Assembly (NCBI GenBank): GCA_012839815.1
Contig: DUMQ01000124.1
Span: forward strand, 5,933 to 69,932
Source: Bacillota bacterium
Lineage (GTDB): Bacteria > Bacillota > SHA-98 > Ch115 > JABLXJ01
DNA: 64,000 nt
Direction of reading: 5' to 3'
The notes below the pieces were generated by a model. It had not been told where the DNA came from and did not search any database. It was given only the letters and a program-made list of their open reading frames with translations. The position numbers and the translations under genes are program-made. Position 1 is the first letter of the stretch; each line of letters starts with the position of its first letter. Positions 2,209 to 58,151 of this stretch are shown here, piece by piece.

Positions 2209-3384
2209 TTGGATAGAAAAGCGGGGGCGTTTGCCGTGAGACAGGGCCATGCGAATCCGGGTAGCATTACAGATTTAGGCGACTTGAAGAGACTAGCGGG
2301 ATTTATAGCGGACCTGGTTGTGTTCTTCAAGATCGTAACGAGGGTCTTCCCTGCAGTATCCGCGGAATTATCCAGGTGGACGGCCAAACTCGAGGCATGT
2401 GCGGACCCGGAGCTGAGGGCGCAAGCGCTTTCCAGCATTCGCCTTAAACGATTTCACGCCCAGGGAGGAAGCATGTATGCCCTCCTCCACCCAGTGTCCC
2501 CGAGAGCACGGCGCCGGGTCATAAACCTGATAGTCGCCTTTCAAACGATAAGCGATTACCTGGATAATCTCTGCGACTATATGGAGTGCTTCGATGAAGA
2601 AGCCTTCAGGTCCCTCCACCTTGCCATGATCGATGCGCTCGACCCCGGCCCCCACCCCGGCACGAAACGAGAAGATGACCCATATTACAGGGTCTTTCCC
2701 CATGGAAACGATGGGGGTTACCTTGCCGCTCTGGTGGGCGAGTGCCAGCGCAATGCACGGGACCTGCCGGCGTTTGAAGCGATCCGGAGCGAGGCGGCCC
2801 GCCTGACGAGCCTCTACTGCGACCTCCAGGTCTACAAGCACCTCGATCCAGCGGTCAGGGAGGCCCGTCTCATCAGGTGGTTCCAGCGCTACGAGCACCA
2901 GTTTCCCGGGATTTACTGGTGGGAATTTGCGGCCGCCGCAGGCTCCACCCTGTGCGTCTTTGCCTTGTTTAGCGCCGCCACCCGGGCCCGGAACCACCTC
3001 CTGGAAAATGAGGTCCGGGCCACGATCGAATCGTACTTCCCATGGATCTGCGGGCTTCATATCCTCCTGGATTATCTCATCGACCAGGGGGAGGATGAGG
3101 GTAGCGGGGCACTGAATTTTGTAAGGTGTTACCCCGACGATGAAACCAGAAATTCAAGGCTCAAGTTTTTTGTGGCCCAATCCCTCGCCAGGGCATCCCT
3201 CCTGCCCAACCCCGGGTTCCACAGGGCCGTTGTCAAGGGTCTCCTTGGCCTCTACCTGTCGGACCCCAAGGTCGAGGCTCAGGGCATGGGGCATCTTGCT
3301 GACGAGCTTCTCGCAATTGCCGGCCTGGAGGCAAGGGCTGCCCGCTGGCTCTGCGCCCAGCTCCGGCGCGCGGGGATAATCTAG
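2209..3384 (+). CDS. ytpB: Tetraprenyl-beta-curcumene synthase family (YtpB/DUF2600)
   Basis: Motifs RFHAQGG, FQTISDYLDNLCD, WWEFAAAAGSTL, LHILLDYLIDQ.ED and LYLSDPK. Start codon uncertain. Confidence 0.85.
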   Translation: MDRKAGAFAVRQGHANPGSITDLGDLKRLAGFIADLVVFFKIVTRVFPAVSAELSRWTAKLEACADPELRAQALSSIRLKRFHAQGGSMYALLHPVSPRARRRVINLIVAFQTISDYLDNLCDYMECFDEEAFRSLHLAMIDALDPGPHPGTKREDDPYYRVFPHGNDGGYLAALVGECQRNARDLPAFEAIRSEAARLTSLYCDLQVYKHLDPAVREARLIRWFQRYEHQFPGIYWWEFAAAAGSTLCVFALFSAATRARNHLLENEVRATIESYFPWICGLHILLDYLIDQGEDEGSGALNFVRCYPDDETRNSRLKFFVAQSLARASLLPNPGFHRAVVKGLLGLYLSDPKVEAQGMGHLADELLAIAGLEARAARWLCAQLRRAGII

Positions 3385-3423: not shown

Positions 3424-4467
3424 CTACCTGTCGCGAACCAGGACCCGGTCTGCGATGTCCTCCAGGCAGGCCCTTGAGGGCCCCTCGGGCATCTCAGCGA
3501 GGCAGGCTTTGGCCGCCTCCACGTGGTGCCTGGCCTTGCGGCGGGCATACTCCAGTGCGCCGCTCGAACTAACCCAGTCGCATATGGTCTTAACATCGTC
3601 CCGAGACGGCCGGCGTCCCGCCAGCATCCTCCTTATATCCGCCGAAAACCTTGCATCTCGCAGTATGTGGAGGATAGGGAGAGTCAGGATGCCAGATGAT
3701 AGATCGAGCCCGGCCGGCTTGCCGGTGACCCTCTCCTCGCCGGTGAAGTCGAGCAGGTCATCTGTTATCTGAAATGCGTAACCCAGTTCAAGCCCGTACC
3801 GCATCATGGCCCCTGCCTCTCTTTTGGATGCCCGCCCGATAACGGCACCGGCGTAACACGAAGCTGCCATGAGGTGGGCCGTCTTTTTGCGGATTTGCTC
3901 CATATAATCGGCCTCGGTAAGGTCGCAGTTAAAGGCCTGACACGCCTGCTCGATCTCTCCCTCGCACATGACCGTGATCGCCTCGGCCATTAGCCTCACG
4001 AGACCAAGCCGGTTCCTGTGGTCCATCCGGCTCAGGATGGTTAGAGCACGGGCAAATAGAAAATCGCCTGCCAGGACCGATGTGCGATTCCCCCATAGGG
4101 AGTTCACAGTTGCCCTGCCCCTCCTGGTGCGCGCGTTGTCTATAATGTCATCGTGGATCAGGGAGGCCATGTGGATCAACTCGGTAGCAACAGCTACGTC
4201 TATAGCTCCCTCGGGATCATGCCGGAAGGAGCGTGCACACAAGAGCACAAGCAAAGGCCTGATGCGCTTGCCTCCCCCGAAGATGAGGTAGTTGCACACG
4301 TCGCCGATGAGTTGGGAATGGGACGATGTCACCTCCTGGAGCCGCTCCTCGACTCGCTTCAGGTCGGCGGCGACACCCGACGCGGGAAGCTCTAGCGCCT
4401 CGAAGGTCCCTGGTCTCTCAATTGCCTGGATGCCCACTCTCAAAGATCCCCCTAACCATGGTCGCAA
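3424..4467 (-). CDS. Polyprenyl diphosphate synthase (heptaprenyl diphosphate synthase component II-like)
   Basis: GGKRIRP, first Asp-rich motif LIHDDIID..RRGR, KKTA, second motif FQITDDLLD. Confidence 0.9.
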   Translation of the reverse strand: MRPWLGGSLRVGIQAIERPGTFEALELPASGVAADLKRVEERLQEVTSSHSQLIGDVCNYLIFGGGKRIRPLLVLLCARSFRHDPEGAIDVAVATELIHMASLIHDDIIDNARTRRGRATVNSLWGNRTSVLAGDFLFARALTILSRMDHRNRLGLVRLMAEAITVMCEGEIEQACQAFNCDLTEADYMEQIRKKTAHLMAASCYAGAVIGRASKREAGAMMRYGLELGYAFQITDDLLDFTGEERVTGKPAGLDLSSGILTLPILHILRDARFSADIRRMLAGRRPSRDDVKTICDWVSSSGALEYARRKARHHVEAAKACLAEMPEGPSRACLEDIADRVLVRDR

Positions 4468-4596
4468 GATTAAGCCACAGACCTATAAGAGATATATGGC
4501 CTGCGGGCTCTACATTAGTGTGACCATTTTCCGCCGCGGGCAACCAGAGAAATACCACACACAACCACGCACAGGCGACGCCGCGCTCAGGCCTTA

Positions 4597-5601
4597 TTAC
4601 CTCGAAACACTCATCTGGTAGTCGTATACCATGCGCGATATCTCAGCTATATTGCCAAAACCCTGGTCTATATCGTAGATTCCCTTTGAAAGCACAACAA
4701 GAATATAGGGCCGCTGGGCGAATACTATACCGGCATCGTTGGCCACGCCCCAAACATCGCCCTCTTTGTGAGCCACCGTTACATCCTCCGGGAGTTTCCC
4801 CGGCAGGCCCACATGATATATGGGATGTGACATGTCATCGAGGAGACGCGCTCCAAGCTCTGGATGTCTCTTACTAAAGTCAAGCACGGCCTCCATATAA
4901 GCACCCATGTCGGCGGCCGTGGTGATGTTTGCGCCACCCGGGAATACCGTCCTGCCGCCGACCCTCTCCATGAACAGCTTTATGTTTTCCTTGCCGAGGT
5001 AACGCATGAGCATCCTATTAGCAACGTTATCACTTATGGTGATCGCCAGGTTGGCGAGCACCCTAAGCGAATACCGGTCGCCCTCGCGCGCCGTAAACTG
5101 CAATATTCCAGCTCCTTCCTGGTAATCGGTGTCCTTGTGATACGTGACACGATCATCCCAATCCAGCTTGCCCTGGGCTACGAGTTCATTCAGGTACAGG
5201 ACGACGGGGACCTTAACCGTGCTCGCGGCCGTTATCGGCTCCCCGGCGTTGATCTCCATAGTTGCCCCGGACTCGAGGTCTTTAAGGTAGACGCCGTAGG
5301 TCGCCCCGGTGGTCGCGATGTAGTCAATAAGCTGCTCCCGCAACGGCCCGTAATCAGGGAGGCTGGATGAGCTCCCGCGCCTGACGCCTTCCGTGGATCC
5401 AGGTCCGCTACCGGTATTCACGCCCTCACCCCCACCCTCCTTTGCCTCTGGAGTTACCTCTTGCGGGGTCCCACTTGCGTCAAAGGGCCAACCGCCCTGC
5501 CCGTGTCCCCCGGGCCCGCGCCCGAGGGCCTGAAACGAGAATGCTATAATCACGGCCGCCAAAATGACCGCCGTTATTATCCTAAATATTCTGCAAGGCA
5601 T
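4597..5601 (-). CDS. Exported class A beta-lactamase-like serine hydrolase
   Basis: N-terminal hydrophobic signal, Gly-rich linker, SxxK (ASTVK), SDN and HKEG (KTG-like) motifs. Confidence 0.8.
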   Translation of the reverse strand: MPCRIFRIITAVILAAVIIAFSFQALGRGPGGHGQGGWPFDASGTPQEVTPEAKEGGGEGVNTGSGPGSTEGVRRGSSSSLPDYGPLREQLIDYIATTGATYGVYLKDLESGATMEINAGEPITAASTVKVPVVLYLNELVAQGKLDWDDRVTYHKDTDYQEGAGILQFTAREGDRYSLRVLANLAITISDNVANRMLMRYLGKENIKLFMERVGGRTVFPGGANITTAADMGAYMEAVLDFSKRHPELGARLLDDMSHPIYHVGLPGKLPEDVTVAHKEGDVWGVANDAGIVFAQRPYILVVLSKGIYDIDQGFGNIAEISRMVYDYQMSVSR

Positions 5602-5872
5602 GATTTAATTCTCTCCCCTCCCAAAGTCTATACGAAAAATATTATATAGGAGACAATGCATCCCTGCATCAAGCAAATCTTGACACTTTTTCTCACTTGC
5701 CCTCATATCTTGAGAAGGATTATTTACATATCCGTCGAAGAAGAATTGCGGCAAAGCAATGTGGGTAAGACGCCAGGAAGCCGACGGAACGTGCAGAGTG
5801 CATGCAAGGCATAAGTAAGAAGGGATAGAACGGGTCAGCACCATATAATAGGATTGAGGGGGTTTGCCAGAC

Positions 5873-6130
5873 ATGGCGGGATTTCTATCCGGGCTTTTCG
5901 GGGGCAAAAAGGGCACAAAAAAATATGAGGACATATTCACGACCGCAAAGAAGATGGGCCAGAGTATCGAGTATGCTTTTAGGCAGGCCGTAGACGCCTC
6001 CGTGGCGGATAAGGTATTCAAAGACAAGAGCGAGGCTTGCGACAAGCTCCTGGAGGTTCTACTGCCAAAGGTTGATTCGGAACTACACCCTGCGCTCCGG
6101 AAGGCGTGCGAGCGCATAAAAGAGCTTTGA
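5873..6130 (+). CDS. Small hypothetical protein (85 aa)
   Basis: GAGGGGG about 10 nt before ATG 5873. Fills the gap, converging on the permease gene. Begins MAGFLSGLFGGKK. Confidence 0.6.
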   Translation: MAGFLSGLFGGKKGTKKYEDIFTTAKKMGQSIEYAFRQAVDASVADKVFKDKSEACDKLLEVLLPKVDSELHPALRKACERIKEL

Positions 6131-6149
6131 GGATCGTGTGCCTGGCCTA

Positions 6150-7154
6150 TCACACCGCCCCGCGTTCCCGCAGCCTGTCAAGGGCCACGGCCAGCAGGAG
6201 CACCGCGCCGCGCGCCACGTCCTGGTAAAAGGATGAGACGTTGAGCAGGACGAGGCCGTTATTGAGCGTGCCCAGTATGAGGGTGCCGAGGAGCGTACCC
6301 CATATGCTCCCTTTACCGCCCGAGAGGCTCGTGCCCCCCAGTATCACCGCGGCGATCACGGTGAGGGCCACACCCGTTGCCGCCTGGGGGGCGCTTGCTC
6401 CAAGCATCGAGGTGAGTAGCACCCCACTCCCAGCGGCAGCCGCGCCGGAAATCACGTAAACCAGCATAGTGATAAGGTCTATGTTGATGCCTGAGAGCCT
6501 CGCAGCCTCTGCATTGCCGCCGATCGCATAGATGGACCTGCCAAACGGCATATAGTTGAGCACAATAAACGCCAGCGCAAAGACAACGGCCATCATCAGG
6601 AGCGGAAAGGGAATCCCCGCAACGTCGCCCATGGCGATAAACCTGAACCCCGGGTGGAGGAGGCTCGATGTCAGCCCTCCGGTAAGGACGAAGGCGATTC
6701 CGCGCACTATCGACATGCTGCCGAGCGTCGTGATAAACGCGTTTATCTTGAGTCTGGTCACGCAGAGCCCGTTAGCCGCCCCGACCAGGGTCCCGAGGAT
6801 TATACTGACTATGACTCCGGTCCATATTCCTAAACCGGCCCTGTAGATAATGCCTATTATCACGCCCGAGATGGCGGCCACCGCTTCCACAGATAGATCG
6901 AGGCCCCCGGCAATGAGCACGAGGGTCGACCCCGCCGCCATTATCCCTATATAGGCCATGTTGGTCCCGATGTTCAGGAAGTTTCGTACATTAAGAAAAT
7001 ACGGGGAAACTACAGAAAAGAATATGATCATGCCCGCGTAAAAGGCAAGCAAGATCGCCGTTCCCGACCACTTTAACACCCCGGGAGTTCCCCGCACGGC
7101 CTGGGTGGTCTCGCGGATAGCCGCGTCGCCGGGTCTTCCGGTCCCAATCATCAT
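6150..7154 (-). CDS. Monosaccharide ABC transporter permease (RbsC-like)
   Basis: Multi-TM protein with GGLDLSV, FITTLG, GRSIYAIGGNAEAARLSGI and IAAVILGGTSLSGGKGS. Confidence 0.93.
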   Translation of the reverse strand: MMIGTGRPGDAAIRETTQAVRGTPGVLKWSGTAILLAFYAGMIIFFSVVSPYFLNVRNFLNIGTNMAYIGIMAAGSTLVLIAGGLDLSVEAVAAISGVIIGIIYRAGLGIWTGVIVSIILGTLVGAANGLCVTRLKINAFITTLGSMSIVRGIAFVLTGGLTSSLLHPGFRFIAMGDVAGIPFPLLMMAVVFALAFIVLNYMPFGRSIYAIGGNAEAARLSGINIDLITMLVYVISGAAAAGSGVLLTSMLGASAPQAATGVALTVIAAVILGGTSLSGGKGSIWGTLLGTLILGTLNNGLVLLNVSSFYQDVARGAVLLLAVALDRLRERGAV

Positions 7155-8716
7155 GACACTCCCCCCATGGCGCAGTAAAGCACCCTCTCCTGCGTTGCAT
7201 CTTCCCCGCTAAACTCGGCCATGACCCTGCCCTTGTAAAGCACGAGAATCCTGTTGCTGATCCTGAGGACCTCAGGTAGGTCCGAGGACAGGACCACGAT
7301 GGCCATCCCCTCTTCTGCGAGCCTCTTCAAGATCCCGTAGATGTCCTCCCTCGCCCCCACGTCCACGCCTCGCGTCGGCTCATCGATGACAAGCACCTTC
7401 ATGTGTCGGGCAAGCCACTTCGCCAGGAGCACCTTTTGCTGGTTGCCGCCGCTCAGGAATCTGGCCGGCTGGAAGAGGCTCCTGCACCTTATGCCGAGCC
7501 CATTCACCCACCTGCTTGCAACGGCGATCTTCTCGTCACGCCTCAAGAAGCCACCCCTCGTCAGCTTATCCATCGATGGCAGGGTGATGTTTTCCTCCAC
7601 GCTCATCTCCAATATGAGCCCCTCCGTCTTGCGATCGGCCGGGACAAGGCCGATCCCATGGATCTTGGCCTCGCCCGGGGATTTGAAGTGAACCGGCACC
7701 CCGTCCACGGCGATCGTCCCGCCATCCACCGGCACGGCACCAACCAGGGCTTTTGCCAGATAATCCGTGCCCGAACCCATGAGGCCAAAAAACGCCACTA
7801 CCTCGCCCGCCCTAACCTGGAATGATACATAATCGAGGCACCCTCGCCGCGACAGGTTCTCCACCGACAATATTGCGGGCCCGGCCGGACGGGCTGGAGC
7901 AAGGTGGCCCTGGACCAGGCTTCGCCCGACCATTGCACGCACGAGGTCCTGGTGCGTAAATCTATTGCGCTCAAATATCCCGGCATTCCTGCCGTCGCGG
8001 AGGACCATAACCCTATCCGCGATCCTGAATACCTCCTCGAGCCGGTGGGAGATATATATTATCCCGACGCCTTTGCTCTTGAGCCCCTCCACAACCTCGA
8101 ACAGCCTCTTTATTTCCCGGTCGGTAAGAGCCGCAGTCGGCTCATCCATTATGAGGATCTTCGCCTCGGCCGAGAGCGCCCTGGCTATCTCCACGATCTG
8201 CCGCTCGGCGACTGTAAGGCGCCCCACCTCCACATCGGGGTCGATCCTCACATCAAGCATATTCAGGACGCGCATAGCCTCCCGCCGCATCCCCTCGTAA
8301 TCCACTATAGGCACCCCGGAGCCCCTAGGCTTACGAAGCGGGAGCCTCCCGAGAAGTATATTCTCCGCCACCGATAACTCGGAGACTGTATTGGGCTCCT
8401 GATAAATAGCCCGGATCCCGCGAGCTATCGCATCCCGCGGGGTCTCCATCTCTACTCTCATTCCGTCGATGATGATCGTACCGGCGTCCTTCGTGTAATC
8501 GCCATTTAGAATCTTAATTAGCGTAGACTTGCCCGCCCCATTTTGCCCAAGCAGCGCCACGACCTCTCCGCGCCTCAGTGTGAGCTCCACATCATCGAGG
8601 ACCTTGACGCCCGAGAACGATTTGGTAATCCCATGCATCTCCAGGACATACGGTGAATGCTTCTCTTTTGCGCTAGCGTCTGCACCCCTCGCGGCCACGC
8701 CCATCGCCACCACCAT
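7151..8716 (-). CDS. Monosaccharide ABC transporter ATP-binding protein (two-domain, RbsA-like)
   Basis: GQNGAGKST, MDEPT, SHRLEE in domain 1. LSGGNQQK and IDEPTRGVDVGA in domain 2. Start set at ATG 8716 after a GGAGGAGAAGGGG RBS-like tract (ORF track starts at 8842). Confidence 0.93.
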   Translation of the reverse strand: MVVAMGVAARGADASAKEKHSPYVLEMHGITKSFSGVKVLDDVELTLRRGEVVALLGQNGAGKSTLIKILNGDYTKDAGTIIIDGMRVEMETPRDAIARGIRAIYQEPNTVSELSVAENILLGRLPLRKPRGSGVPIVDYEGMRREAMRVLNMLDVRIDPDVEVGRLTVAERQIVEIARALSAEAKILIMDEPTAALTDREIKRLFEVVEGLKSKGVGIIYISHRLEEVFRIADRVMVLRDGRNAGIFERNRFTHQDLVRAMVGRSLVQGHLAPARPAGPAILSVENLSRRGCLDYVSFQVRAGEVVAFFGLMGSGTDYLAKALVGAVPVDGGTIAVDGVPVHFKSPGEAKIHGIGLVPADRKTEGLILEMSVEENITLPSMDKLTRGGFLRRDEKIAVASRWVNGLGIRCRSLFQPARFLSGGNQQKVLLAKWLARHMKVLVIDEPTRGVDVGAREDIYGILKRLAEEGMAIVVLSSDLPEVLRISNRILVLYKGRVMAEFSGEDATQERVLYCAMGGVS

Positions 8717-8934
8717 TTCCCCTTCTCCTCCGGATATGCCGGGAGAAGGTCCCGGCACCATTAGCGCTTGCTGTTCTCTGGACAGCGGCAGGCTCGCCTC
8801 GCCGTGGGTCACCTCGCTGGGATGCGCGGCGAGCCTACCCATCCTTCTACCTCTTCCCCCGCTTTGCCCTCCGCTTTTCCTTTACCTTTTCGCTATTCAC
8901 CTATTCTATCCGCTTATCTATATTACCTACCCAC

Positions 8935-10002
8935 CTATTCACCAGGGTAGTACACCTTTACGTTGTCACGTGTAATGAAAACGTGATCCACAAACACCTC
9001 GCGAGGCACCTTCTCACCCGCAAGCATCTTGAGCGCCGTCGGGATGACCTTGTTGCCGTAGCGATCGGGGAAATGAGCAGTAGCCCCGATCAGACTCCCG
9101 TTTCTGATGCCTTCGCGGCCTAGTGGATCGGCCCCGAGCGCCACTATGAGGGCGTCAGATTTGCGCCGCGCGAAATCAAGGGCGGCAACTATTCCCATGG
9201 CAACCTCGTCGTTTATGCCAGTCCCCATGATAGGCGTCCCCTGGGGGATCCTCGCGAGAATATCAACCATCTGCTGCCGCGAGTAGTCGAGAGTATTCTT
9301 GCTATCAAATCGGATTATCTGCTTCTCGGGGAATCCCTTCAATATCTCGCGGAACCCGTCAACCACGCCCTGGATGCGCCTGGCCGGTATTTCACCGGAT
9401 TGCGGGAGCTCGCCAAGGACCAGGACCCCCTTTGGCGCTTTATCGCCCCACTTTTTGAGCGCGGCCTCTGCGAGGGCCTTGCCGGCGAGATAGCCGTCAA
9501 GATGGTTGTTTACGCCGAAGAATACCGCTCCGGGCATTGGTATATCGATGGCTATAACGGGGATCTTGGCCTTGTTGAACCGCTCCATGATCATGGGACC
9601 AAAGTTGACGTCGGTCTGGAATTCGATGACGAAATCGACGTTACGCGTCACAAAGTTGTCGGCGTTGGCCAGCGCTGTCGCACCGTCGAGCCTGTTGTCG
9701 GCGACGATGAGATCGATCCCTGCCGCCTCGCAATTCTTTTTGATGCTGTTTTCAACATCTATGCAAAAAGGTATATCGCGCTGGAGGTTGGCGAAGCCGA
9801 ATACATAACTCTTGCCGTTTCTCGGCGGCCTTACCTTCATGGCTTCGGATACCATCTTCTGGAGTTCCTGTTTGGAGAGCATCCCCATTATTTCGGCGCC
9901 CGCCATGAATTCAGAACCAACCATTGTAAAGAGGAACACCCCCAGGACGAACGCAACGATTAACGTTTTCAGCCTCCTAGACATGCCCGTTTCCCCCCTC
10001 AT
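8935..10002 (-). CDS. Sugar ABC transporter substrate-binding protein (RbsB-like)
   Basis: N-terminal signal peptide. KVIPVIAIDIP, GINDEVAMG and VALGAD motifs of type I periplasmic binding proteins. Lies directly upstream of the ATPase and permease genes. Confidence 0.88.
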   Translation of the reverse strand: MRGETGMSRRLKTLIVAFVLGVFLFTMVGSEFMAGAEIMGMLSKQELQKMVSEAMKVRPPRNGKSYVFGFANLQRDIPFCIDVENSIKKNCEAAGIDLIVADNRLDGATALANADNFVTRNVDFVIEFQTDVNFGPMIMERFNKAKIPVIAIDIPMPGAVFFGVNNHLDGYLAGKALAEAALKKWGDKAPKGVLVLGELPQSGEIPARRIQGVVDGFREILKGFPEKQIIRFDSKNTLDYSRQQMVDILARIPQGTPIMGTGINDEVAMGIVAALDFARRKSDALIVALGADPLGREGIRNGSLIGATAHFPDRYGNKVIPTALKMLAGEKVPREVFVDHVFITRDNVKVYYPGE

Positions 10003-10109
10003 GTTGATGGTCTAGCAGTCACCAACTCAATTCAAGACTCAGGGCTCGTGCCGGTACACCAGAAGTTCGCCGGGCGGCCAGAAACTTGCTGGGCCAGCTG
10101 ATTGGCAGC

Positions 10110-11207
10110 TTACCGGAAGCTGCCATAGGTTCTGACCGTCTCCCACATCTTGAGGACATTCTCCACCTTGCAGTCGGGGTGAATCTCAGTGCTCGACCCT
10201 ACGATCAACCCACCTCCCCTCCATCCTTCGTCAATGGCTCGCTTTACAGCAGCCTCGACTTCTTCCCCGGTCCCATAGGGCAGGAGCTGGCTCACGTCAA
10301 TCCCACCCATCATGGTCAGCCTGGGATATCTCCTGCGCAGTTCGCCGATATCCATGCCTGCCACGGGTTCAACGGGATTTATGCCATCTATCCCGGATGC
10401 TACAAAATCATCCATCACCTCCATGAGATACCCATCGGAATGGTAGATAACTTTGATCCCATGACTGTGCCATGCATCCACCACCTGCTTTAACCTGGGG
10501 AAAAACTCCTTGCGGAGAAAGGCGGGGGAGAAGATCAAGGAGCCCTTGAACGCAAGGTCCGAATAGACCAGCGCTACCGGCGATAGTTCAACGTCGGCTA
10601 CGTCGTGGATCCTCCTGACTTCGAAATCCGCGAGAGCCTGGAGCCACCTGGATATAAGCTCGGGGTCCTCGGCATAGGTGTAGATGAAAAGGTCGAGTCC
10701 GGCGCGTATCCAGGCCGTATCCAGGCCAACAGGGCTTTCGGCGGGGAAGAGCACGGTATCCCCCAGCTTCTCCTGTAACGCTAGGAACTGTTCCCGGGGG
10801 CTCGCGTCGGCCTGGCCCCAGACGTTTGCCTTGCCCGCAAAGGTCCAGATATCACCGGGGTGGTAGTCCTGGAGCTCATCGATGTTGCGCCGGATATATT
10901 CCTTCAACCCCGCGCTATCCTTGAACGGCCTCTCGATGAGCCACGTCGTCCACCACTCTTGTTTGTAGACGAAACCATCCTTGTCGGCAAAGATCTTTTC
11001 TTCGGCCGGCGGGGTGACGCCCCTTGTAGCGTCAAGGTTCATGCTGATCGTCCTGCAGAGAAGGTCGAAGGCGTTCTCGCGTGTTACCTTCTCCCCTGTA
11101 CACCGCTCCAGAAGCGCTATGTTATGAATCATGTCGAAAATAGGGATCCTATCAACAGGCTTGAATTCAATGGTGTTCACTACCCTCTCCCGCGCGGTCA
11201 TCGGCAT
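10110..11207 (-). CDS. Uroporphyrinogen decarboxylase (URO-D/CIMS) fold protein of unknown function
   Basis: MTARERV..TIEFKPVDRIP N-terminus, SP.FLRKEFFP, YHSDG, GIDG.NP.EP..GMD and GGIDV..LLP.GT.EEV. Confidence 0.85.
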   Translation of the reverse strand: MPMTARERVVNTIEFKPVDRIPIFDMIHNIALLERCTGEKVTRENAFDLLCRTISMNLDATRGVTPPAEEKIFADKDGFVYKQEWWTTWLIERPFKDSAGLKEYIRRNIDELQDYHPGDIWTFAGKANVWGQADASPREQFLALQEKLGDTVLFPAESPVGLDTAWIRAGLDLFIYTYAEDPELISRWLQALADFEVRRIHDVADVELSPVALVYSDLAFKGSLIFSPAFLRKEFFPRLKQVVDAWHSHGIKVIYHSDGYLMEVMDDFVASGIDGINPVEPVAGMDIGELRRRYPRLTMMGGIDVSQLLPYGTGEEVEAAVKRAIDEGWRGGGLIVGSSTEIHPDCKVENVLKMWETVRTYGSFR

Positions 11208-11247
11208 CGATCACACGCTCCCCTCTCCCTGAGATAAAACCACACCC

Positions 11248-11284
11248 AAAATAAAGGATGCCCTCAGAAACCAAAGGCATCCTT
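11248..11284 (-). terminator. Intrinsic terminator in the leader of the UroD-like/sugar ABC operon
   Basis: Minus strand reads AAGGATGCC-TTTGGTTTCTGAG-GGCATCCTT-TATTTT: perfect 9-bp stem then a U-rich tail, about 40 nt before the start codon at 11207. Confidence 0.85.
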
Positions 11285-11320
11285 GACCTTTTCCATATCC
11301 GCACGCCAACCATGAGCGCG
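11276..11320 (-). promoter_or_regulatory. Putative ANTAR-binding dual-hairpin RNA element
   Basis: Hairpin 1 CGCGC-TC[AUGGUU]G-GCGUG and hairpin 2 GGUC[AAGGAU]GCC. Both hexaloops have A1 and G4 and are closed by C-G. Hairpin 2 overlaps the terminator 5' arm. An ANTAR regulator gene is about 200 nt away. Confidence 0.7.
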
Positions 11321-11326
11321 GGATCA

Positions 11327-11372
11327 TTTAGTAAGATTTAGTAAAAATCATCCTGAAGATTTGGTTTAGTAA
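11327..11372. repeat. Three direct copies of TTTAGTAA (candidate operator)
   Basis: Copies at 11327, 11337 and 11365 in the AT-rich region upstream of the ANTAR element. Confidence 0.6.
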
Positions 11373-11521
11373 AATTCAATATCACTCAATGTTAAACTAT
11401 ATGCTTAATTATACGACAAATATCTCACAATTCCTGCCGGCAAACTCAAACATCTTACCATTCCACGTGTCGAGCCTGCAAGTATTTTTCCCGGTCCCGG
11501 TCGACCCCGACCGAGGGCAGG

Positions 11522-12103
11522 CTAGCTCAATATCTTATCGGCCTCGATTATCTGGCGGGCCATGTCCACAAGCTTCTTGTTTTGATCGCGGCTCTTCTTC
11601 TGAAGGAGCCTCATGGCCTCCGCCTCCCCGAGCCCCAGTCTATCCATTAATATCCCCTTTGCGCGCTCGACGAGCTTTCGCGCCTCAAGGGCCTCCCTGG
11701 CGCTCCGGGCCTCGGCCGCGAGGCGCCTCTCCTCGTCGAATCTCGCCAGCGCGACCTCGATGGCCGGCCCCAGGTCATGTTCATCAACAGGCTTTACAAG
11801 ATAAGCGAATACCCCGGCATCTGCTGCCCTCTCCACAAGCTCCCTGTCTGAGTACCCGGTGAGTATGACCACCGGCGTGGGGCACCTCTCGGAGATCGCC
11901 CTTGCAGCCTCCACCCCGTCCATTCGCGGCATATTTATGTCCATTATCACCACATCGGGCCTCACCCGCTCGCACAGAGAAACCGCCTCCGCGCCGTCAG
12001 CGGCCTCGCCCACCACCTCGTAGCCGAGGCTCTCGAGCTGGGCTCTAATACCCATGGCCACAAGGGATTCATCCTCCGCGATCAAGACCCTCAACGTTCC
12101 CAT
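11522..12103 (-). CDS. REC-ANTAR response regulator (PdtaR/EutV type)
   Basis: REC domain: IAEDE, DINMP, LTG, KP. C-terminal ANTAR: RKLVERAKGILM...EAEAMRLLQKKSRDQNKKLVDMARQII. Start placed at ATG 12103. Confidence 0.93.
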   Translation of the reverse strand: MGTLRVLIAEDESLVAMGIRAQLESLGYEVVGEAADGAEAVSLCERVRPDVVIMDINMPRMDGVEAARAISERCPTPVVILTGYSDRELVERAADAGVFAYLVKPVDEHDLGPAIEVALARFDEERRLAAEARSAREALEARKLVERAKGILMDRLGLGEAEAMRLLQKKSRDQNKKLVDMARQIIEADKILS

Positions 12104-12239
12104 AATGTGCCACCCCCATCGCGCTGGCCCTTCTACATCGGACATCCGACTGATATCTGAGTATCTTTCCCCCTCCTCGTGCCACCGCTTACACGCACAT
12201 AACATTTTCGTATATCCGTGCGGGGCGCGCGAAAACGGG

Positions 12240-14174
12240 TCAGACCCTGGGGATCCTTATCGTAGCACGCGTGCCGCCCGCCGGCCCGAGCCTTTCGATA
12301 GAAAAGTGCCCCTGCAGATCCTTGGATACAAGCATGTTTACGATAGACAACCCGAGGTGCGCCGAGGTCCGGGCATCAAACTCCGCAGGCAAACCCACGC
12401 CGTCGTCGAGCACCTCGATGATAATATCCGATTCGGTTTCATCCATAGAGACATTTATAGAACCCGCATCCCGACCGGGGAAGGCGTGCTTGAAGCAGTT
12501 GATTATAAGCTCATTTACGGCCAGGGCCAGCGACGTGGCGCGCCTGTAGGTCATCATGATATCCCTTCCCTCGAGCTCGACCTGAATAGATCTCGACAGG
12601 TTCCTCCCGCTCGCTAGCTCAATAACCTTCTTTACTATCTCCCTCGCATTAACGACGCCTATATCCTTCTCATCCTTGGACAGGAGATCATGGACCGCAG
12701 CGATCGCCTTTACCCGCGCAATACTCTCTCTCAACACGGCCTCGACGGGCCTGGACTCCTTAAAGAGCATCTGGAGCGAAAGCAGGCTTACAATCGATTG
12801 CAGGTTGTTCTTGATGCGATGATGGGCTTCCTTCAAAAGGGCCGATCTTCCCATGAGCCGGGTATTTTCGATGGCGATCGCAGCCTGGCTAGCAAAGGCC
12901 GAGAGAAGCTCGATCTCTTTCTGTGAATAAAGGTGGGGGCGCCTGTAAAAGACCTCTATTGCCCCGGCTATCCTCGTCCTCACCTTGATGGGCACGCAGA
13001 TAAGGGACCTGACAGAGGGCCTGGGCTCCTTGGCGTAGACGTCCGCAAACTCGCTCGCGCCGAGATCGGATACGAAAAAAGGGGATCCCCCGGAGATGAC
13101 CCTGCCCAGCATCTCCTTCTTGACGTCAACCTCTATCTCTTCCCCGCGGTTGAACCTCACCTTATTTACAACCGCCCTCGAATCTTCGTCGATAAGCTCA
13201 ATTACGCAGGAATCTGCGTTCATGATGTTAACGGCGCGCTCGGCGAGAAAGTTTAGCACGTCCTGCAGCTCATATTCGGAAGCCAGCAACTCGCTTGTGC
13301 GCAAAATGGCCTGGATCACCTCACCGGTCTCGCGGAGTATATCCTGGTCTTGCGCCCCATGCCCTCCCCAGCTCACGGCTTCACCCGTATTTGGAATTTC
13401 TCCTATGGGGTCATCGCGCCCCATCATCAGCCGAATGACCCTTTCAGGGGCTCTCCTGGCTGCAGTGCAGGATAAGGTCGCTCTCACCTCGCCGTCCTTC
13501 AAGATGGTTATTCTATCGGCGACCTGAAAGGCCTCTTCAAGGCGGTGTGAGAAATACAGGAAGCTAGTCCCCTGGCCAGCATAGCGCCTGATGATTCTGA
13601 AAACATCTGCGGCCGCAAGCTCTCCTAAATTGTCCACAGGCTCATCCATCACCACAATGCGCGGCCCGGTCGAAAAAGCCCTCGCTATGGCCGTCAACTG
13701 CCTCTCCTCAAGGTTGAGATTCTTTACAAGTTCTTTTACATCAATACGGATTCCCAGGTTCCGGAGCAGGGCCTCTGTCGAGGCGTACAACCCGGCCCAG
13801 TACACGAAGCGCGAGCGCCCCCGGGTGGGCAGGCGGCCGAGAAAGATATTCTCTGCGACGGATAGCTGCGGGAGGAGCTGGGGGTTCTGGTAGACGAAAC
13901 TCAACCCATTTCGCTGTGCATCGCCAGGTCCCCTCAAAGTAAGGGGCCTTCCGTAAAGGTTTACCACCCCCGAGCTTAAAGGGCACACACCGGCCAGCAC
14001 GCCAACGAGGCTTGATTTGCCTGCCCCATTTTCCCCTACTATCGCATGAACCTCGCCCTCATGCAGGTCCAGGCTGACGTGGTTTAGCACGGCAAAGCCG
14101 TTGGCCCGATACGTCGTAACACCGCGCATTTCCAGTATATTACCGGCACAGGTATGAGCATAAACCTGGTTCAC
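12240..14174 (-). CDS. Histidine kinase with N-terminal ABC ATPase domain (ABC NBD-GAF-HisKA_2-HATPase fusion)
   Basis: One uninterrupted 644-aa ORF. Residues ~13-253 are an RbsA-like NBD (GENGAGKSS, YQ, VMDEP, SHRLEE). Residues ~288-440 are GAF (ICVPIKV, FASQAAIAIENTRL). Then EAHHRIKNNLQ, NELIINCFKHAF, DDGVG and LGLSIV. Confidence 0.9.
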   Translation of the reverse strand: MNQVYAHTCAGNILEMRGVTTYRANGFAVLNHVSLDLHEGEVHAIVGENGAGKSSLVGVLAGVCPLSSGVVNLYGRPLTLRGPGDAQRNGLSFVYQNPQLLPQLSVAENIFLGRLPTRGRSRFVYWAGLYASTEALLRNLGIRIDVKELVKNLNLEERQLTAIARAFSTGPRIVVMDEPVDNLGELAAADVFRIIRRYAGQGTSFLYFSHRLEEAFQVADRITILKDGEVRATLSCTAARRAPERVIRLMMGRDDPIGEIPNTGEAVSWGGHGAQDQDILRETGEVIQAILRTSELLASEYELQDVLNFLAERAVNIMNADSCVIELIDEDSRAVVNKVRFNRGEEIEVDVKKEMLGRVISGGSPFFVSDLGASEFADVYAKEPRPSVRSLICVPIKVRTRIAGAIEVFYRRPHLYSQKEIELLSAFASQAAIAIENTRLMGRSALLKEAHHRIKNNLQSIVSLLSLQMLFKESRPVEAVLRESIARVKAIAAVHDLLSKDEKDIGVVNAREIVKKVIELASGRNLSRSIQVELEGRDIMMTYRRATSLALAVNELIINCFKHAFPGRDAGSINVSMDETESDIIIEVLDDGVGLPAEFDARTSAHLGLSIVNMLVSKDLQGHFSIERLGPAGGTRATIRIPRV

Positions 14175-14202
14175 TGCCCCGGCCCCCGTAGGATATTACC
14201 TA

Positions 14203-14234
14203 AATATTATGAGTTCGGCAATATTATGAGTTCG
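14203..14234. repeat. 15-bp direct repeat AATATTATGAGTTCG x2
   Basis: Exact copies at 14203-14217 and 14220-14234, in the divergent intergenic region just upstream of the kinase. Confidence 0.7.
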
Positions 14235-14386
14235 ACAGGAAGTCACAAATCCCTTCGCACACCCTGCATGATTCCACCTCATCCCGCGGTTACCCTGCGG
14301 TTATCCCGGCGAGTCATGCACCTCCCATGCCATTCGTATAATTTATTTAGAGAACGTATGCCGGAAGCATCCAGGAGGATGACCTT

Positions 14387-15379
14387 GTGAGACGAACGAA
14401 AGCCCTTAATAGACCGGTTATGCTTACCCTGGTAGCTCTGGCAGCCATGGTCGCTTTGGTCGTGAGCGGCGCCTACTCTACCATGCCCAGTGACGCTACC
14501 ACCGGCTCTGCAGGCTTCAGGGCCTGCCCCCTGCAGTGCGAGGTCGACAGGGAGCTCTATCTCAAGGACCCGCCGTTCCGGGGTCACGACGTAGTTGAGC
14601 TCCAGCAACGCCTCAAGCAGCTCAATATCTACAAGGGAAAGATTGATGGCATCTTTGGCAGGTCCACGGCCCAGTCCGTCAAAAAATTCCAGGCACAGGC
14701 CGGGCTTAGGCCGGACGGGGTCGTGCGAGGGGAGACATGGGATAAACTAGGCGAGGGCATCCACGTCCCGGCCAGCCAGGCCACAGTCCCACGCCCCCCT
14801 GGCAAGATCAAGCTCCTCGTAAACGTGGATGAATTGACCCTCACAGTCTACTCAGGCGACAAGCCATACAAGACATATCCCATCGCAATTGGTCAATGGA
14901 CAACGCCAACCCAGCTCGGCGAGTTCACGATAATAGACAAGGGCTACAACCCGGGCGGACCGTTCGGCACGAGGTGGCTCGGCCTCAATGTCCCCTGGGG
15001 GAGTTACGGTATCCACGGTACGAACCGGCCCTGGAGCATCGGTACGGCCGCGAGCCAGGGGTGTATCAGGATGTTTAACGAACACGTGGAGGAGATATTC
15101 GACTGGGTATCAATAGGTACAAAGGTTATCATAACCGGGCAGTATCTCGAAGAGGACCTGGTGACCGGCGTGGAACGCGAATTGAAGCCCGGTGACACGG
15201 GCAAGGATATTAGATATGTGCAATACCGCCTGCGCCAGGCGGGCTTCGACCCGGGGCCTGTCGACGGGTGGTTTGGCCCGGCGATGCAAAGCGCAGTCAG
15301 GCAGCTGCAGGATTTCTACGGGCTGCCCGCCACCGGCAAGGTAGGGTCAAATGAACTCTACGTCCTGGGCCTGCGATGA
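14387..15379 (+). CDS. L,D-transpeptidase (YkuD) with two peptidoglycan-binding domains
   Basis: PG_binding_1-like DVVELQQRLKQL...IDGIFG..T..SVKKFQ. Catalytic YGIHGT...SIG.AASQGCIRM. Second PG-binding repeat at the C-terminus. N-terminal TM segment. Confidence 0.9.
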   Translation: MRRTKALNRPVMLTLVALAAMVALVVSGAYSTMPSDATTGSAGFRACPLQCEVDRELYLKDPPFRGHDVVELQQRLKQLNIYKGKIDGIFGRSTAQSVKKFQAQAGLRPDGVVRGETWDKLGEGIHVPASQATVPRPPGKIKLLVNVDELTLTVYSGDKPYKTYPIAIGQWTTPTQLGEFTIIDKGYNPGGPFGTRWLGLNVPWGSYGIHGTNRPWSIGTAASQGCIRMFNEHVEEIFDWVSIGTKVIITGQYLEEDLVTGVERELKPGDTGKDIRYVQYRLRQAGFDPGPVDGWFGPAMQSAVRQLQDFYGLPATGKVGSNELYVLGLR

Positions 15380-57104: not shown

Positions 57105-58151
57105 TCAGCTCTCTTTGGGTGTCATTAAGACTCTCCTGTAAGTATCCAGGCTTTCGAGCGCTATTCCCGTTCCCAGTGCCACACAGCTCAAAGGATCCTC
57201 AGTTCGCTGAACAGGCATGCTGGTCTCCTCAGCAAGGAGCCGGTCAAGCCCCCTTAAGAGCGAACCGCCGCCGGTCATGACAATGCCCTTGTCCATTATA
57301 TCCGCAGCAAGCTCGGGCGGGGTCTTCTCCAGGGTCAGCCTCACAGCATCGACAATCGCCGCCACGGGTTCAGCCAGCGCCTGCCGTATCTCCCTGGCCG
57401 AAACCTTCACAGTCTTGGGGAGGCCCGTGACCATATCGCGTCCCTTGATCTCCATGGTCTCGTCATTATCCTGGTCATCCTGAGGATACGCCGACCCGAT
57501 CTGCTTCTTGACCTCCTCCGCCGTCCTCTCGCCGATCATGAGGTTATAGCTTCGCTTAACATGTTGGGCTACAGCCTCATCCATTTCATCACCGGCTATG
57601 CGGATCGATTTGCTGGCGACGATTCCACCCAGGGAGATCACGGCAATCTCAGTTGTCCCCCCGCCTACATCAACAATCATGTTACCAGTCGGCTCGTGCA
57701 CAGGCAGACCGGCACCTATAGCCGCAGCCATGGGTTCCTCAATTAAATAGGCCTCGCGCGCGCCTGCCTGGAGAGCCGCATCGATCACGGCGCGTTTCTC
57801 GACCTCGGTCACACCGGACGGAACCCCGATGACGACCCGCGGCCGGAAAAAACCCCTGCCCCTGTGAGCCTTGGAGATGAAATGGCGTATCATGGTCTCA
57901 GTAACGTCGAAATCCGCGATAACCCCGTCCTTCATCGGTCTGACGACAACGATATTGCCAGGGGTCCTCCCCACCATCCGGTTGGCCTCATTGCCTACAG
58001 CCAGGACCTCATCCGTATCGCGGCGGATGGCGACAACCGAGGGCTCCTGCAGCACTATCCCCCTGCCCCTGACGTAAACCAGGGTGTTGGCCGTACCAAG
58101 GTCAATTCCCATGTCCTTTGAAAAGAGGCCCAAAATAGGGTCAAGTATCAT
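57105..58151 (-). CDS. mreB: Actin-like rod shape protein
   Basis: [54 protein letters not shown]. Confidence 0.97.

Follow-up and report, generated by a model that had tools for sequence, protein, structure and literature searches.

A family of soluble histidine kinases with an RbsA-like ABC domain, REC-ANTAR partners and a proposed link to CUT2 sugar importers

The 64-kb stretch of DNA analysed here (the window) encodes, at 12240–14174 (−), a genuine soluble sensor histidine kinase that belongs to a conserved, uncharacterised family. Members of this family consist of an ABC nucleotide-binding domain (NBD) derived from the first NBD (NBD1) of CUT2 sugar importer ATPases, a variable linker of ~25–40 residues, a GAF domain, a HisKA_2 domain and a HATPase_c domain. 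The partner of the kinase is the REC-ANTAR response regulator encoded next to it. The NBD is probably a pseudo-ATPase in most of the family and would most likely plug the kinase into the CUT2 transporter. The explanation as a whole, a kinase–ANTAR–RNA switch acting on the CUT2 operon with the NBD as its transporter-docking input, stands in our judgement at about an even chance of being correct.

The ORF listing gives a single stop-free frame of 644 amino acids with a GTG start, and Pfam finds in it ABC_tran (residues 30–180, 1.4e-23; PF00005, 84.5 bits, with the cut-off at 25), GAF/GAF_2 (302–436), HisKA_2 (449–519; PF07568, 68 bits) and HATPase_c (547–643; PF02518, 43.6 bits), which confirms the single ORF and the domain composition of the original prediction. 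The NBD (residues ~10–253, 13416–14147 (−)), defined by Pfam, NCBIfam, AF2 and Foldseek, is modelled by AF2 with a pLDDT of 90–97, and its Foldseek TM values to LptB, FtsE and MJ1267 are 0.8–0.88. The linker (residues 254–294, 13293–13415 (−)), delimited by AF2 and the family alignment, is acidic or polar and variable; it is 41 residues long in the window's copy, with a family median of 24.5, and its residues 256–282 have a low-confidence structure prediction. The GAF domain (residues 295–440, 12855–13292 (−); Pfam and family alignment) starts with a family-invariant helix, ELLASEYELQDVL, and S299, E302 and D305 are invariant. The HisKA_2 dimerisation and phospho-acceptor domain (residues 441–520, 12615–12854 (−)) contains the invariant EAHHRIKNNLQ, and the HATPase_c catalytic domain (residues 521–644, 12243–12614 (−)) the family-invariant N box, G1 box and G608. 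The protein has both hallmarks of a HisKA_2-type kinase, the DHp H-box HHRIKNNLQ and the catalytic N and G boxes, and H451/H452, N554/E555/N559, D590/G592/G594 and G608 do not vary among 120 family sequences. No transmembrane helix was found in the kinase, as had been claimed earlier: its top 19-residue Kyte–Doolittle window scores 1.67 and lies within the NBD fold, compared with 2.69 for the peak window of the permease.

In NCBIfam, residues 12–254 align to positions ~1–244 of the ~500 in the AraG, RbsA, YtfR and MglA models (1e-50 to 4e-53), i.e. to the first NBD only. The scores of 167–181 bits are far under the whole-protein cut-offs of 689–850, and the kinase is not a CUT2 ATPase equivalog, a class defined by tandem NBD1–NBD2 organisation, a length of ~500 aa and a score over the cut-off. 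The neighbouring ORF at 7151–8842 matches the tandem profile end to end (positions 6–497 of 504), and its AraG score of 520 bits is also below the equivalog cut-off of 689. This ORF contains the strings LSVAENILLGRLP, SHRLEEVFRIADR, LTVAERQ and PTAAL, which the original prediction had cited from an RbsA paralogue. The close resemblance of the kinase NBD to that paralogue, claimed at the same time, did not hold up: the two are 36.6% identical, on a par with the 33–38% found for the RbsA NBD1 of unrelated organisms, the nearest kinase NBD is 43% identical, and the transporter NBD1s are monophyletic in 98/100. Kinase NBDs are consistently nearer to NBD1 (35% identity) than to NBD2 (24.5%) and form a single clade with transporter NBD1 in 100/100 bootstraps of an NJ tree. 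Monophyly of the kinase NBDs themselves is poorly supported in the NJ tree (34/100), so the NBD alone cannot tell a single fusion event from several; the end-to-end alignment and a shared linker-proximal helix favour one fusion origin.

The motifs read earlier are all present in the ORF: Walker A GENGAGKSS (K53), the Q-loop glutamine (Q96), Walker B VVMDE (D177/E178), the H-switch SHRLEE (H210), the signature LNLEERQ and the D-loop PVDNL. The window's copy therefore possesses the Walker A, Q-loop Gln, Walker B and H-switch His by which an ABC NBD is recognised. The canonical signature LSGGQ is replaced by LNLEERQ, in which L153 and E156 are family-conserved, and CUT2 transporter NBD1s likewise do not have LSGGQ (LTVAERQ in the neighbouring RbsA-type ATPase). 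Across the family, 70 of the 120 members have neither the Walker A Lys nor the Walker B Asp, the Q-loop Gln is retained in 65 and the A-loop aromatic position in 0%. The H-switch His is kept in one sequence of the 120, the window's copy, which is also the only one to combine Walker A, Walker B and the H-switch, and which keeps 49 of the 70 transporter-NBD1-invariant positions, the family maximum. The best-conserved stretch of the NBD is the VAEN segment after the Q-loop (E108 in 118/120), which in ABC importers borders the coupling-helix groove. Family-specific residues have been gained at W126, E156, P171, W212 and AKxNP, and conservation at such positions reaches 99% for P243, 91% for P171 and 86% for E156. 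Mean column conservation is 0.56 in the GAF domain vs 0.46 in the NBD.

There are 119 full-length homologues with the same Pfam set and 32–47% identity, in hosts that include Hydrogenispora, Halocella, Halanaerobium, C. aceticum, Paenibacillus, Fredinandcohnia and Petrotoga, and some of them are found in complete genomes of 4 Mb. About 103 of the best 150 clusters (50% identity) are end-to-end fusions, and the family is thus widespread, with at least ~100 clusters in Bacillota and Petrotoga; the fusion, which the original prediction had wanted traced in relatives, recurs in all these diverged clusters. The single-protein scan of genome contigs contributed only six full-length loci, and most loci come from the family-alignment scan of metagenomes. 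A search of the literature and the PDB returned no characterised kinase with the ABC-NBD, GAF, HisKA_2 and HATPase architecture, in agreement with the original prediction.

An assembly chimera at the NBD–GAF junction (nt ~13277–13412), or half of an RbsA gene joined to a GAF kinase gene by a frameshift, would also produce such an ORF. Run X1, the second of two metagenome runs, has a contig break at 13300–13306, inside the linker, and two rare relatives appear to be split (L060, and L100, where the NBD ORF overlaps the kinase ORF). Against such an artefact, an independent biogas-metagenome contig covers 13212–13485 at 100% identity and spans the junction, neither metagenome run contains an alternative join there, X1 included, the family alignment is unbroken through the linker, and more than 100 independent full-length homologues have the same architecture, among them those in complete genomes. 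The chance of an artefact is, therefore, negligible.

The REC-ANTAR regulator gene (11522–12205 (−), longest ORF 227 aa) is identified by Pfam (Response_reg, 103 bits; ANTAR, 71.6 bits) and by partner synteny. Its true start is likely M35 at 12103, which is preceded by GGGGGTG and gives a protein of 193 aa, in line with relatives (185–196 aa). The regulated operon, assigned by family searches, begins with a gene for a URO-D or MtaA-CmuA-like protein (10110–11207 (−)) and comprises genes for a CUT2-type periplasmic sugar-binding protein (Peripla_BP_4, 8935–10002 (−)), the RbsA/AraG-type tandem-NBD ATPase (7151–8842 (−), also supported by the NBD comparison) and a CUT2 permease (BPD_transp_2, AraH/RbsC-like, 6150–7154 (−)), the proposed docking partner. 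The start of the ATPase is probably downstream of 8842, because its NBDs begin near residue 65. A nominal 182-aa ORF at 5605–6153 has a low-complexity translation and no family match and is probably not a gene.

This arrangement recurs throughout the family. A REC-ANTAR gene lies no more than 700 bp from the kinase gene in 41 of 41 non-redundant loci, a CUT2 (RbsA-type) ATPase and permease lie within 7 kb in 22 of 24, and all seven annotated contexts agree on the synteny. The pairing of a soluble GAF–HisKA_2 kinase with a REC-ANTAR regulator, here adjoining at 11522–12103/12205, and the co-occurrence with sugar ABC operons that was to be looked for are both borne out by these counts. An "orphan" permease that accompanies the kinase in locus L013 is not general across loci. 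The sole clean NBD-less member of the kinase subfamily, L064 (n = 1), has an ANTAR partner; its neighbourhood contains ara-like genes and, in place of a CUT2 system, a CUT1 importer (two BPD_transp_1 and one SBP_bac_1). Two further NBD-less candidates were set aside: P0159 counts as split or frameshifted and not as NBD-less, since a degenerate NBD ORF lies directly upstream, and P0141, at a contig edge, is uninformative.

Between the regulator gene and the operon's first gene lies a leader (11208–11521 (−)) with a perfect TATAAT at 11413–11408 (−), a candidate promoter. Folding and covariance models place in this leader a hairpin P1 (11297–11324 (−)) with the loop AUGGUU at 11313–11308, carrying A1 and G4. 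A second hairpin, P2 (11274–11290 (−), AAGGU-CAAGGAU-GCCUU), has the hexaloop AAGGAU at 11284–11279 and would be the antiterminator. An intrinsic terminator (11244–11284 (−)) consists of a 14-bp stem at 11284–11254 followed by a U-tract. The loop and 3' arm of P2 double as the terminator's 5' arm, and the two structures are mutually exclusive. Covariance model R2, trained on other organisms only and with the window's sequence excluded, has a single match on both strands of the window, at 11273–11327 (−) (30.9 bits, E about 4e-5), where model R1, built from five foreign leaders, also has its best match. The weaker second match of R1, at 57710–57724, is inside an MreB-like coding ORF, is not recovered by R2 and was treated as a chance match. 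In the leader alignment 96.7% of cells are paired, compared with 35–50% in slid controls, 15 of 18 pairs show compensatory changes, and in 30 of 31 leaders the arm of P2 also takes part in the stem of a U-tailed terminator. The dual-hairpin motif occurs in ~29 fusion loci vs 0/6 NBD-less kinase loci. An Rfam scan of 4000–15000 at permissive thresholds gave zero family matches. A strict contiguous-stem hexaloop scan was uninformative because real hairpins carry bulges or 7-nt loops, and it was replaced by a bulge-tolerant listing and the covariance models. Published ANTAR targets are dual hairpins whose hexaloops carry A1 and G4 and whose P2 competes with a terminator (PMC3369931). The leader at 11327–11273 (−) has two hexaloop hairpins with A1 and G4, the second overlapping the terminator, and is a strong candidate for the RNA target of the regulator. 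RNA antitermination of the transporter's own operon, the output proposed originally, is very probably correct.

We consider it probable that the phosphorylated regulator binds the dual-hairpin RNA at 11327–11273 (−) and steadies P2 against the overlapping terminator (11284–11254), and that transcription then continues into the operon, from the URO-D-like gene through those for the sugar-binding protein and the RbsA-type ATPase to the permease gene. Upstream of these steps, the NBD may serve as a transporter-docking input module that is catalytically dead in most family members. The kinase dimer would offer two NBD1-like domains to occupy the places of the NBDs on the CUT2 permease, replacing or competing with RbsA, and transporter occupancy, or movements driven by the binding protein or substrate, could set kinase vs phosphatase output. 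The transporter would thereby become a co-sensor for its own induction. A non-catalytic role of the NBD is suggested by motifs that decay while the fold is retained, by the exceptional conservation of VAEN and by the variability of the linker, and a tie to CUT2 specifically by the NBD-less L064, which sits with a CUT1 importer. A linker so variable, and modelled with such low confidence, makes rigid allosteric transmission unlikely, and the retention of the Q-loop Gln in only 65 of 120 members also speaks against docking.

A more specific form of this proposal has the kinase dimer replace RbsA on the CUT2 permease, giving an ATPase-dead "sensor version" of the importer (binding protein, permease and two pseudo-NBDs) in which extracellular substrate binding would determine kinase output and hence antitermination through an ANTAR leader subclass of its own. 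We regard this form as tenable, if rather more likely wrong than right. If true, signal input through a fused transporter motor domain would form a new class, and a kinase that has no membrane segment would be signalling across the membrane in a new way.

The docking proposal has to be weighed against readings that leave the transporter aside or change the partner of the NBD. The GAF domain could be the real sensor, of internalised substrate or a metabolite, with the NBD an accessory dimerisation or scaffold domain, or a relic, that makes no transporter contact. The GAF domain is better conserved than the NBD, and N-terminal domains of related kinases take small ligands (the GAF/PAS domains of PdtaS and the sensor domain of EutW). 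The existence of L064, with its ANTAR partner and sugar genes alongside, indicates that the GAF–kinase core can work alone. A mirror-tree comparison of 37 loci gives a partial correlation between NBD and permease of 0.02 with the kinase core controlled for, a crude measure because NBD distances are near saturation, against 0.74–0.80 for RbsA and permease; this missing signal counts against docking and also favours the GAF domain. However, the NBD fold has been selectively kept in ~100 diverged clusters, down to individual positions such as P243, P171 and E156, whereas a relic would be expected to be lost or truncated more often, and the NBD occurs with CUT2 genes in nearly all loci while the lone NBD-less relative has a CUT1 system beside it. 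A pure GAF sensor is, in our view, unlikely, though it carries the most weight among these alternatives.

Alternatively, the NBD1-like domain could pair with another NBD, either as a homodimer within the kinase or with RbsA, whose NBD2 has the signature LSGGNQQK, and read the state of ATPase activity. Kinase-specific residues line the NBD–NBD interface at E156 (signature), S184 (D-loop) and Q211/W212 (H-switch), and suit such pairing no less well than docking on the permease. The window's copy combines an intact Walker A, Walker B and H-switch with the degenerate LNLEERQ, and to form a catalytic site it would need an NBD2-type signature, such as RbsA could supply. The NBD2 of RbsA is, however, covalently paired with its own NBD1, and the partial correlation of the kinase NBD with RbsA NBD1 or NBD2 is just 0.12. 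Most family members cannot bind ATP, and ATP-sandwich pairing is therefore not general, which makes this reading less probable again. The canonical K53, Q96, D177/E178 and H210 and the many retained NBD1-invariant positions of the window's copy would also suit an ATP/ADP (energy-charge) sensor that gates the kinase, an option raised in the original prediction. The decay of the Walker motifs and the H-switch, together with the universal loss of the A-loop aromatic, makes ATP/ADP sensing unlikely as a conserved role of the family, and it leaves the strict linkage to CUT2 unexplained; we give it the smallest share of the three. Because the nucleotide site is intact in the window's copy, ATP binding may yet modulate docking or NBD pairing there.

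Transporter docking, the reading we prefer, has partial parallels in known systems. The NBD is most similar in sequence to NBD1 of the CUT2 ATPases (RbsA, AraG, MglA, XylG and YtfR), with the same fold and a naturally degenerate signature, but these proteins have tandem NBDs where the kinase has one, and the catalytic motifs decay in the kinase family. PdtaS of Mycobacterium tuberculosis is a soluble GAF-PAS HisKA_2/HATPase_c kinase with the REC-ANTAR partner PdtaR; it shares the GAF domain, the kinase type and the partner with the fusion kinases and differs from them in having neither an NBD nor a linkage to a transporter. KdpD, which regulates a transporter operon, combines a histidine kinase with a cytoplasmic P-loop domain (Walker A/B) at its N terminus. 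Unlike the fusion kinase, in which Pfam detects ABC_tran and not the KdpD domain, KdpD has an N-terminal domain that is not an ABC-type NBD, is membrane-anchored and acts through an OmpR-type DNA-binding regulator. Transporter-dependent sensing by histidine kinases occurs in BceS–BceAB, PhoR–PhoU–PstSCAB and DcuS–DctA; there, as synteny suggests here, the kinase reads the transporter and the output is transporter expression. In those systems the kinase is membrane-bound and separate from the transporter, whereas the fusion kinase is soluble, carries a copy of the motor domain itself and would act through RNA antitermination instead of DNA binding. EutW/EutV of Enterococcus faecalis likewise combine a soluble cytoplasmic kinase with a REC-ANTAR regulator and act by antitermination on leaders whose two hairpins have hexaloops with A1 and G4, the downstream hairpin being set against an intrinsic terminator (PMC3369931). 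EutW differs in its own N-terminal ethanolamine-sensing domain, the lack of an ABC domain and its eut targets in place of an ABC importer, and the leaders described here have their own consensus, YUAUGGYU-GG and GGYUAUGGGUGCC, with no Rfam match in the scan of positions 4000–15000 of the window.

A fused copy of a motor domain with a decayed catalytic site is, judging from the sequences, the mark of a domain kept for binding and not for catalysis. To our knowledge, regulators that sense ABC importer traffic are few (MalK–MalT, PstB–PhoU–PhoR, BceAB–BceS), and all are separate proteins. If docking is true, the family would offer a compact and tractable model of transporter-coupled signalling, with relatives in Paenibacillus, Bacillus/Fredinandcohnia and Clostridium aceticum. 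It would also offer a natural series of pseudo-ATPases, from the fully canonical window's copy to fully degenerate ones, for hydrolysis-free coupling of NBD and permease, and a portable sugar-responsive kinase/ANTAR/RNA switch. The assignment also corrects database names: the fusion members stand in public databases under automatic names, many of them as "ribose transport system ATP-binding protein".

The fusion kinase is the product of one stop-free minus-strand ORF in the window (12240–14174, GTG start, 644 aa). It consists of a nucleotide-binding domain (NBD) matched by Pfam ABC_tran (residues 30–180), a linker, a GAF domain (residues 302–436), a HisKA_2 domain (residues 449–519) and a C-terminal HATPase_c domain (residues 547–643). 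Residues 12–254 align solely to the first half (~1–244 of ~500 residues) of the tandem-NBD ATPases of CUT2 (RbsA/AraG-type) sugar transporters in NCBIfam (AraG, RbsA, YtfR, MglA, XylG; E = 1e-50 to 4e-53). At ~180 bits the matches are far under the cut-offs of these families, and with such scores and a single NBD the input half lies outside the RbsA/AraG family. The NBD carries Walker A GENGAGKSS (K53), Q96, the signature LNLEERQ, Walker B VVMDE (D177/E178), the D-loop PVDNL and the H-switch SHRLEE (H210). There is no membrane helix in the protein, as its top 19-residue hydrophobicity window reaches 1.67 and lies within the NBD fold, compared to 2.69 in the permease. The ORF, the domains, every motif quoted for the NBD and the lack of a membrane helix are all as described in the original prediction.

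In an AlphaFold2 model built on a 120-sequence alignment, a canonical NBD is predicted confidently at residues 10–250 (pLDDT 90–97), as are the GAF and catalytic domains, residues 256–282 have low confidence, and the monomer pTM of 0.49 corresponds to no fixed inter-domain arrangement. Foldseek retrieves only generic NBDs (LptB, FtsE, MJ1267 and MalK, TM 0.8–0.88), and the whole architecture was not found among solved structures. Both the sequence of the linker (column conservation 0.26, with many D, E, N, K and S residues) and its length (18–41 aa, median 24.5) vary, and the window copy has the longest. The helix that comes after it, LTSEYELxDVL, is striking for its invariance, with S299, E302 and D305 invariant. 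An NBD-less kinase from this subfamily has the helix too, which makes it part of the kinase core.

The window DNA at the fusion locus is also present in several biogas-fermenter, hot-spring and digester metagenomes. An independent contig is 100% identical over 13212–13485, which spans the NBD–GAF junction (nt ~13277–13412), a contig of a second metagenome run simply breaks at 13300–13306, and the metagenome contigs matching the window DNA display no alternative joins at the junction. More decisive is the recurrence of the architecture. Among the best 120 matches in a search of 5.8 billion proteins there are 119 full-length relatives (603–680 aa, 32–47% identity, 92–100% coverage), all with ABC_tran, HisKA_2 and HATPase_c and nearly all with an annotated GAF. 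Their sources are Hydrogenispora, Halocella, Iocasia, Halanaerobium, Clostridium aceticum, Halalkalibacter, Fredinandcohnia, Evansella, Paenibacillus and Petrotoga. When 1.84 billion representatives were searched exhaustively with a profile, ~103 clusters in the top 150 were end-to-end fusions, and below them the list passes into ordinary ~500-aa RbsA-type ATPases. The assembly chimera flagged as a risk in the original prediction is thus countered both by the spanning contig and by the relatives, and the chance that the fusion is an artefact is practically nil. Fusion kinases form a widespread, apparently uncharacterised family, whose database names are merely automatic ('ATP-binding cassette domain-containing protein', 'ribose transport system ATP-binding protein'). 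The freely accessible literature on ANTAR, ABC/sugar, HisKA_2, RbsA and co-sensor topics yielded no description of the architecture, and ABC-coupled systems are absent from a 2025 review of RNA-binding antiterminators. In rare loci the fusion is split into two overlapping ORFs (L100, 3–614 and 601–1740, where the ORF of a degenerate NBD overlaps that of the GAF-kinase; L060, 572–1960 and 1924–2385); the genes may be truly split there, or the split may come from frameshift errors in the sequence of low-coverage contigs.

The kinase NBD has a mean identity of 35% to the first NBDs (NBD1s) of transporter ATPases vs 24.5% to the second (NBD2s), and kinase NBDs form a clade with NBD1s, against NBD2s, in 100/100 bootstraps. 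On these comparisons the kinase NBD is NBD1-derived. It is no recent copy of the neighbouring RbsA: its identity to NBD1 of that protein is 36.6% (33–38% to foreign RbsAs), transporter NBD1s are monophyletic (98/100), and the NBD most similar to it belongs to the nearest kinase, P0001 (43%). These values weaken the earlier description of the two as close paralogues. Among 120 family members, only the window copy combines Walker A GK[ST], Walker B DE and the H-switch His; 28 have Walker A and Walker B without the His, 21 have Walker A alone, and 70 retain neither the Walker A Lys nor the Walker B Asp (e.g. KNSSEQK, IMHEP, TKQWEE). The window copy is therefore atypical, and of 70 positions near-invariant in transporter NBD1s it keeps 49, the maximum, vs 30 in the median member and a minimum of 18. 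Losses cluster at nucleotide-contacting positions (the A-loop aromatic is kept in 0%, H210 in 1%). The motifs are lost in the order H-switch, Walker B, Walker A, suggesting that hydrolysis became dispensable before nucleotide binding did. The fold is kept, as are the VAEN segment after the Q-loop (E108 in 118/120), L153, P179 and L183, together with the family-specific residues W126, E156, P171, Q211/W212 and an AKxNP motif with P243 at 99%. Thus, the family NBD is in all likelihood a pseudo-ATPase retained for a structural role.

The genes from the kinase to the permease all run on the minus strand, with the kinase first. It is followed by a REC-ANTAR regulator (11522–12205; its true start is probably M35 at 12103, after a GGGGGTG ribosome-binding site), a 314-bp leader, and the operon predicted to be ANTAR-controlled, which begins with a URO-D/MtaA-CmuA-like protein (10110–11207; PF01208, C-terminal half only), an unusual cargo for a sugar ABC operon. 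Further down are a Peripla_BP_4 binding protein (8935–10002), a tandem-NBD RbsA/AraG-type ATPase (7151–8842) and a BPD_transp_2 permease (6150–7154). The ATPase ORF carries a ~60-residue N-terminal extension; family matches begin at residues 58–67, and translation probably starts downstream of the ORF start. An adjacent ANTAR gene and a CUT2 operon are present in 7/7 annotated contexts from different genera, where, in place of a URO-D-like gene, zinc-ADH, FGGY kinase, class II aldolase and HAD genes are frequent members of the operons and hint at pentitol or pentose use. Across 55 non-redundant fusion loci, scored where the flank was long enough, an ANTAR gene lies ≤700 bp from the kinase in 41/41, and a CUT2 ATPase and permease lie within 7 kb in 22/24; in the two exceptions the transporter is 7.5 kb away or a binding-protein gene is adjacent.

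A strong intrinsic terminator (14-bp stem, 11284–11254 (-), then a U-tract) closes the leader. Directly upstream are two hairpins, P1 (11324–11297 (-), loop AUGGUU) and P2 (11290–11274 (-), loop (C)AAGGAU), and the terminator 5' arm is made up of the P2 loop and 3' arm. This fits the published ANTAR target, in which two hairpins have hexaloops with A at 1 and G at 4 and the second competes with the terminator (PMC3369931). Leaders of other organisms contain this element too, and an identical 19-mer, AAAAGGTCAAGGATGCCTT, stands beside the terminator in Petrotoga. Covariance models were trained exclusively on foreign leaders to avoid circularity. Over both strands of the whole window, R1, from five leaders, has its top match at 11272–11327 (-) (13.7 bits, E = 0.36), and R2, from 21 foreign hits, has a single match, at 11273–11327 (-) (30.9 bits, E about 4e-5). 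In the foreign alignment, whose fitting to the model favours structure, 96.7% of cells are paired vs 35–50% with partners slid, and 15/18 pairs show compensatory changes. The R2 motif is present in ~29 fusion loci and in 0/6 NBD-less kinase loci, and 30/31 leaders allow pairing of the P2 arm into a terminator with a U-tail. Control of the transporter operon by antitermination therefore appears well supported. This part of the original interpretation is borne out, with the RNA element now located; the close paralogy and the ATP/ADP sensor have lost ground. A P2-like CGGCUAUAGGUGCCG at 57710–57724 (-), with a weak R1 score and no R2 match, lies inside an MreB-like ORF (57105–58151) and was judged a chance occurrence. 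The window has one copy of the dual-hairpin element, and the loci of some relatives have two: L020 (6877–6923, 9484–9529), L025 (6870–6917, 9511–9562), L030 (9665–9714, 9742–9793) and L022 (9820–9869, 9889–9940). In two of them one copy is directly upstream of the kinase gene, suggesting autoregulation, and in two the copies are in tandem.

Architecture, family, synteny and leader RNA are the established part of the account. We strongly infer a chain in which the kinase would signal to the adjacent REC-ANTAR regulator, the regulator would stabilise P1/P2, and polymerase would then read through the terminator into the transporter operon. With its partner regulator and RNA target features, the output half belongs to the ANTAR two-component class (EutVW, PdtaSR). 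The NBD may be a tethered docking module linking the kinase to the CUT2 transporter, a reading to which we give roughly even chances. It would explain a motor-domain fold kept without its chemistry and the near-perfect co-occurrence of the NBD with CUT2 transporters, and a kinase dimer would present as many NBD1-like domains, two, as the permease dimer has NBD sites. A natural control is locus L064 (6980–8715 and flanks). Its kinase (374 aa) is of the same subfamily but lacks the NBD, has an ANTAR partner and sits between araA/araB/araD-like genes and a CUT1-type importer (two BPD_transp_1 and SBP_bac_1), which uses a different ATPase class from CUT2; the R2 motif is absent there. Such a function would be most like transporter-dependent sensing by BceS–BceAB or PhoR–PhoU–PstB, but unlike in these systems, the transporter-like part is fused to a soluble kinase.

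Against docking, the NBD shows no extra correlation to the permease (partial r = 0.02) or RbsA (0.12) in a mirror-tree analysis of 37 loci, in which it co-varies with its own kinase core (r = 0.87) and RbsA–permease co-variation is strong (0.74–0.80). The variable, low-confidence linker also gives no defined coupling step. A sensor centred on the GAF domain, with the NBD as an accessory, is unlikely. Several family-specific residues lie on the NBD–NBD face, which counts against docking; pairing of the NBD with another NBD or with RbsA is rather improbable. Nucleotide sensing, proposed originally and in keeping with the intact motifs of the window copy, is weakened by their decay across the 120-member family and is very improbable.

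Several features accompany these loci. In Hydrogenispora (L013, 16633–18749) an extra permease and binding-protein pair without its own ATPase gene follows the regulated transporter, an arrangement not general across loci. In the window, a 182-aa ORF overlapping the permease stop (5605–6153 (-)) has a serine-rich low-complexity translation and no family match; it is probably not a gene, so that a stretch of ~550 bp from the permease to the next gene is unaccounted for. The latter (4597–5601 (-)) encodes a class A beta-lactamase-fold protein (PF13354, 176 bits) that scores far under every NCBIfam beta-lactamase cut-off and could lie either inside or outside the regulated operon. The divergent neighbour of the kinase gene (14387–15379 (+)) encodes a YkuD L,D-transpeptidase that carries two PG_binding_1 domains. 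A DUF2600 protein (404 bits), of the YtpB tetraprenyl-beta-curcumene synthase family, adjoins a heptaprenyl/polyprenyl diphosphate synthase (2209–3384 (+) and 3424–4467 (-)), and the pair may produce C35 sesquarterpenes.
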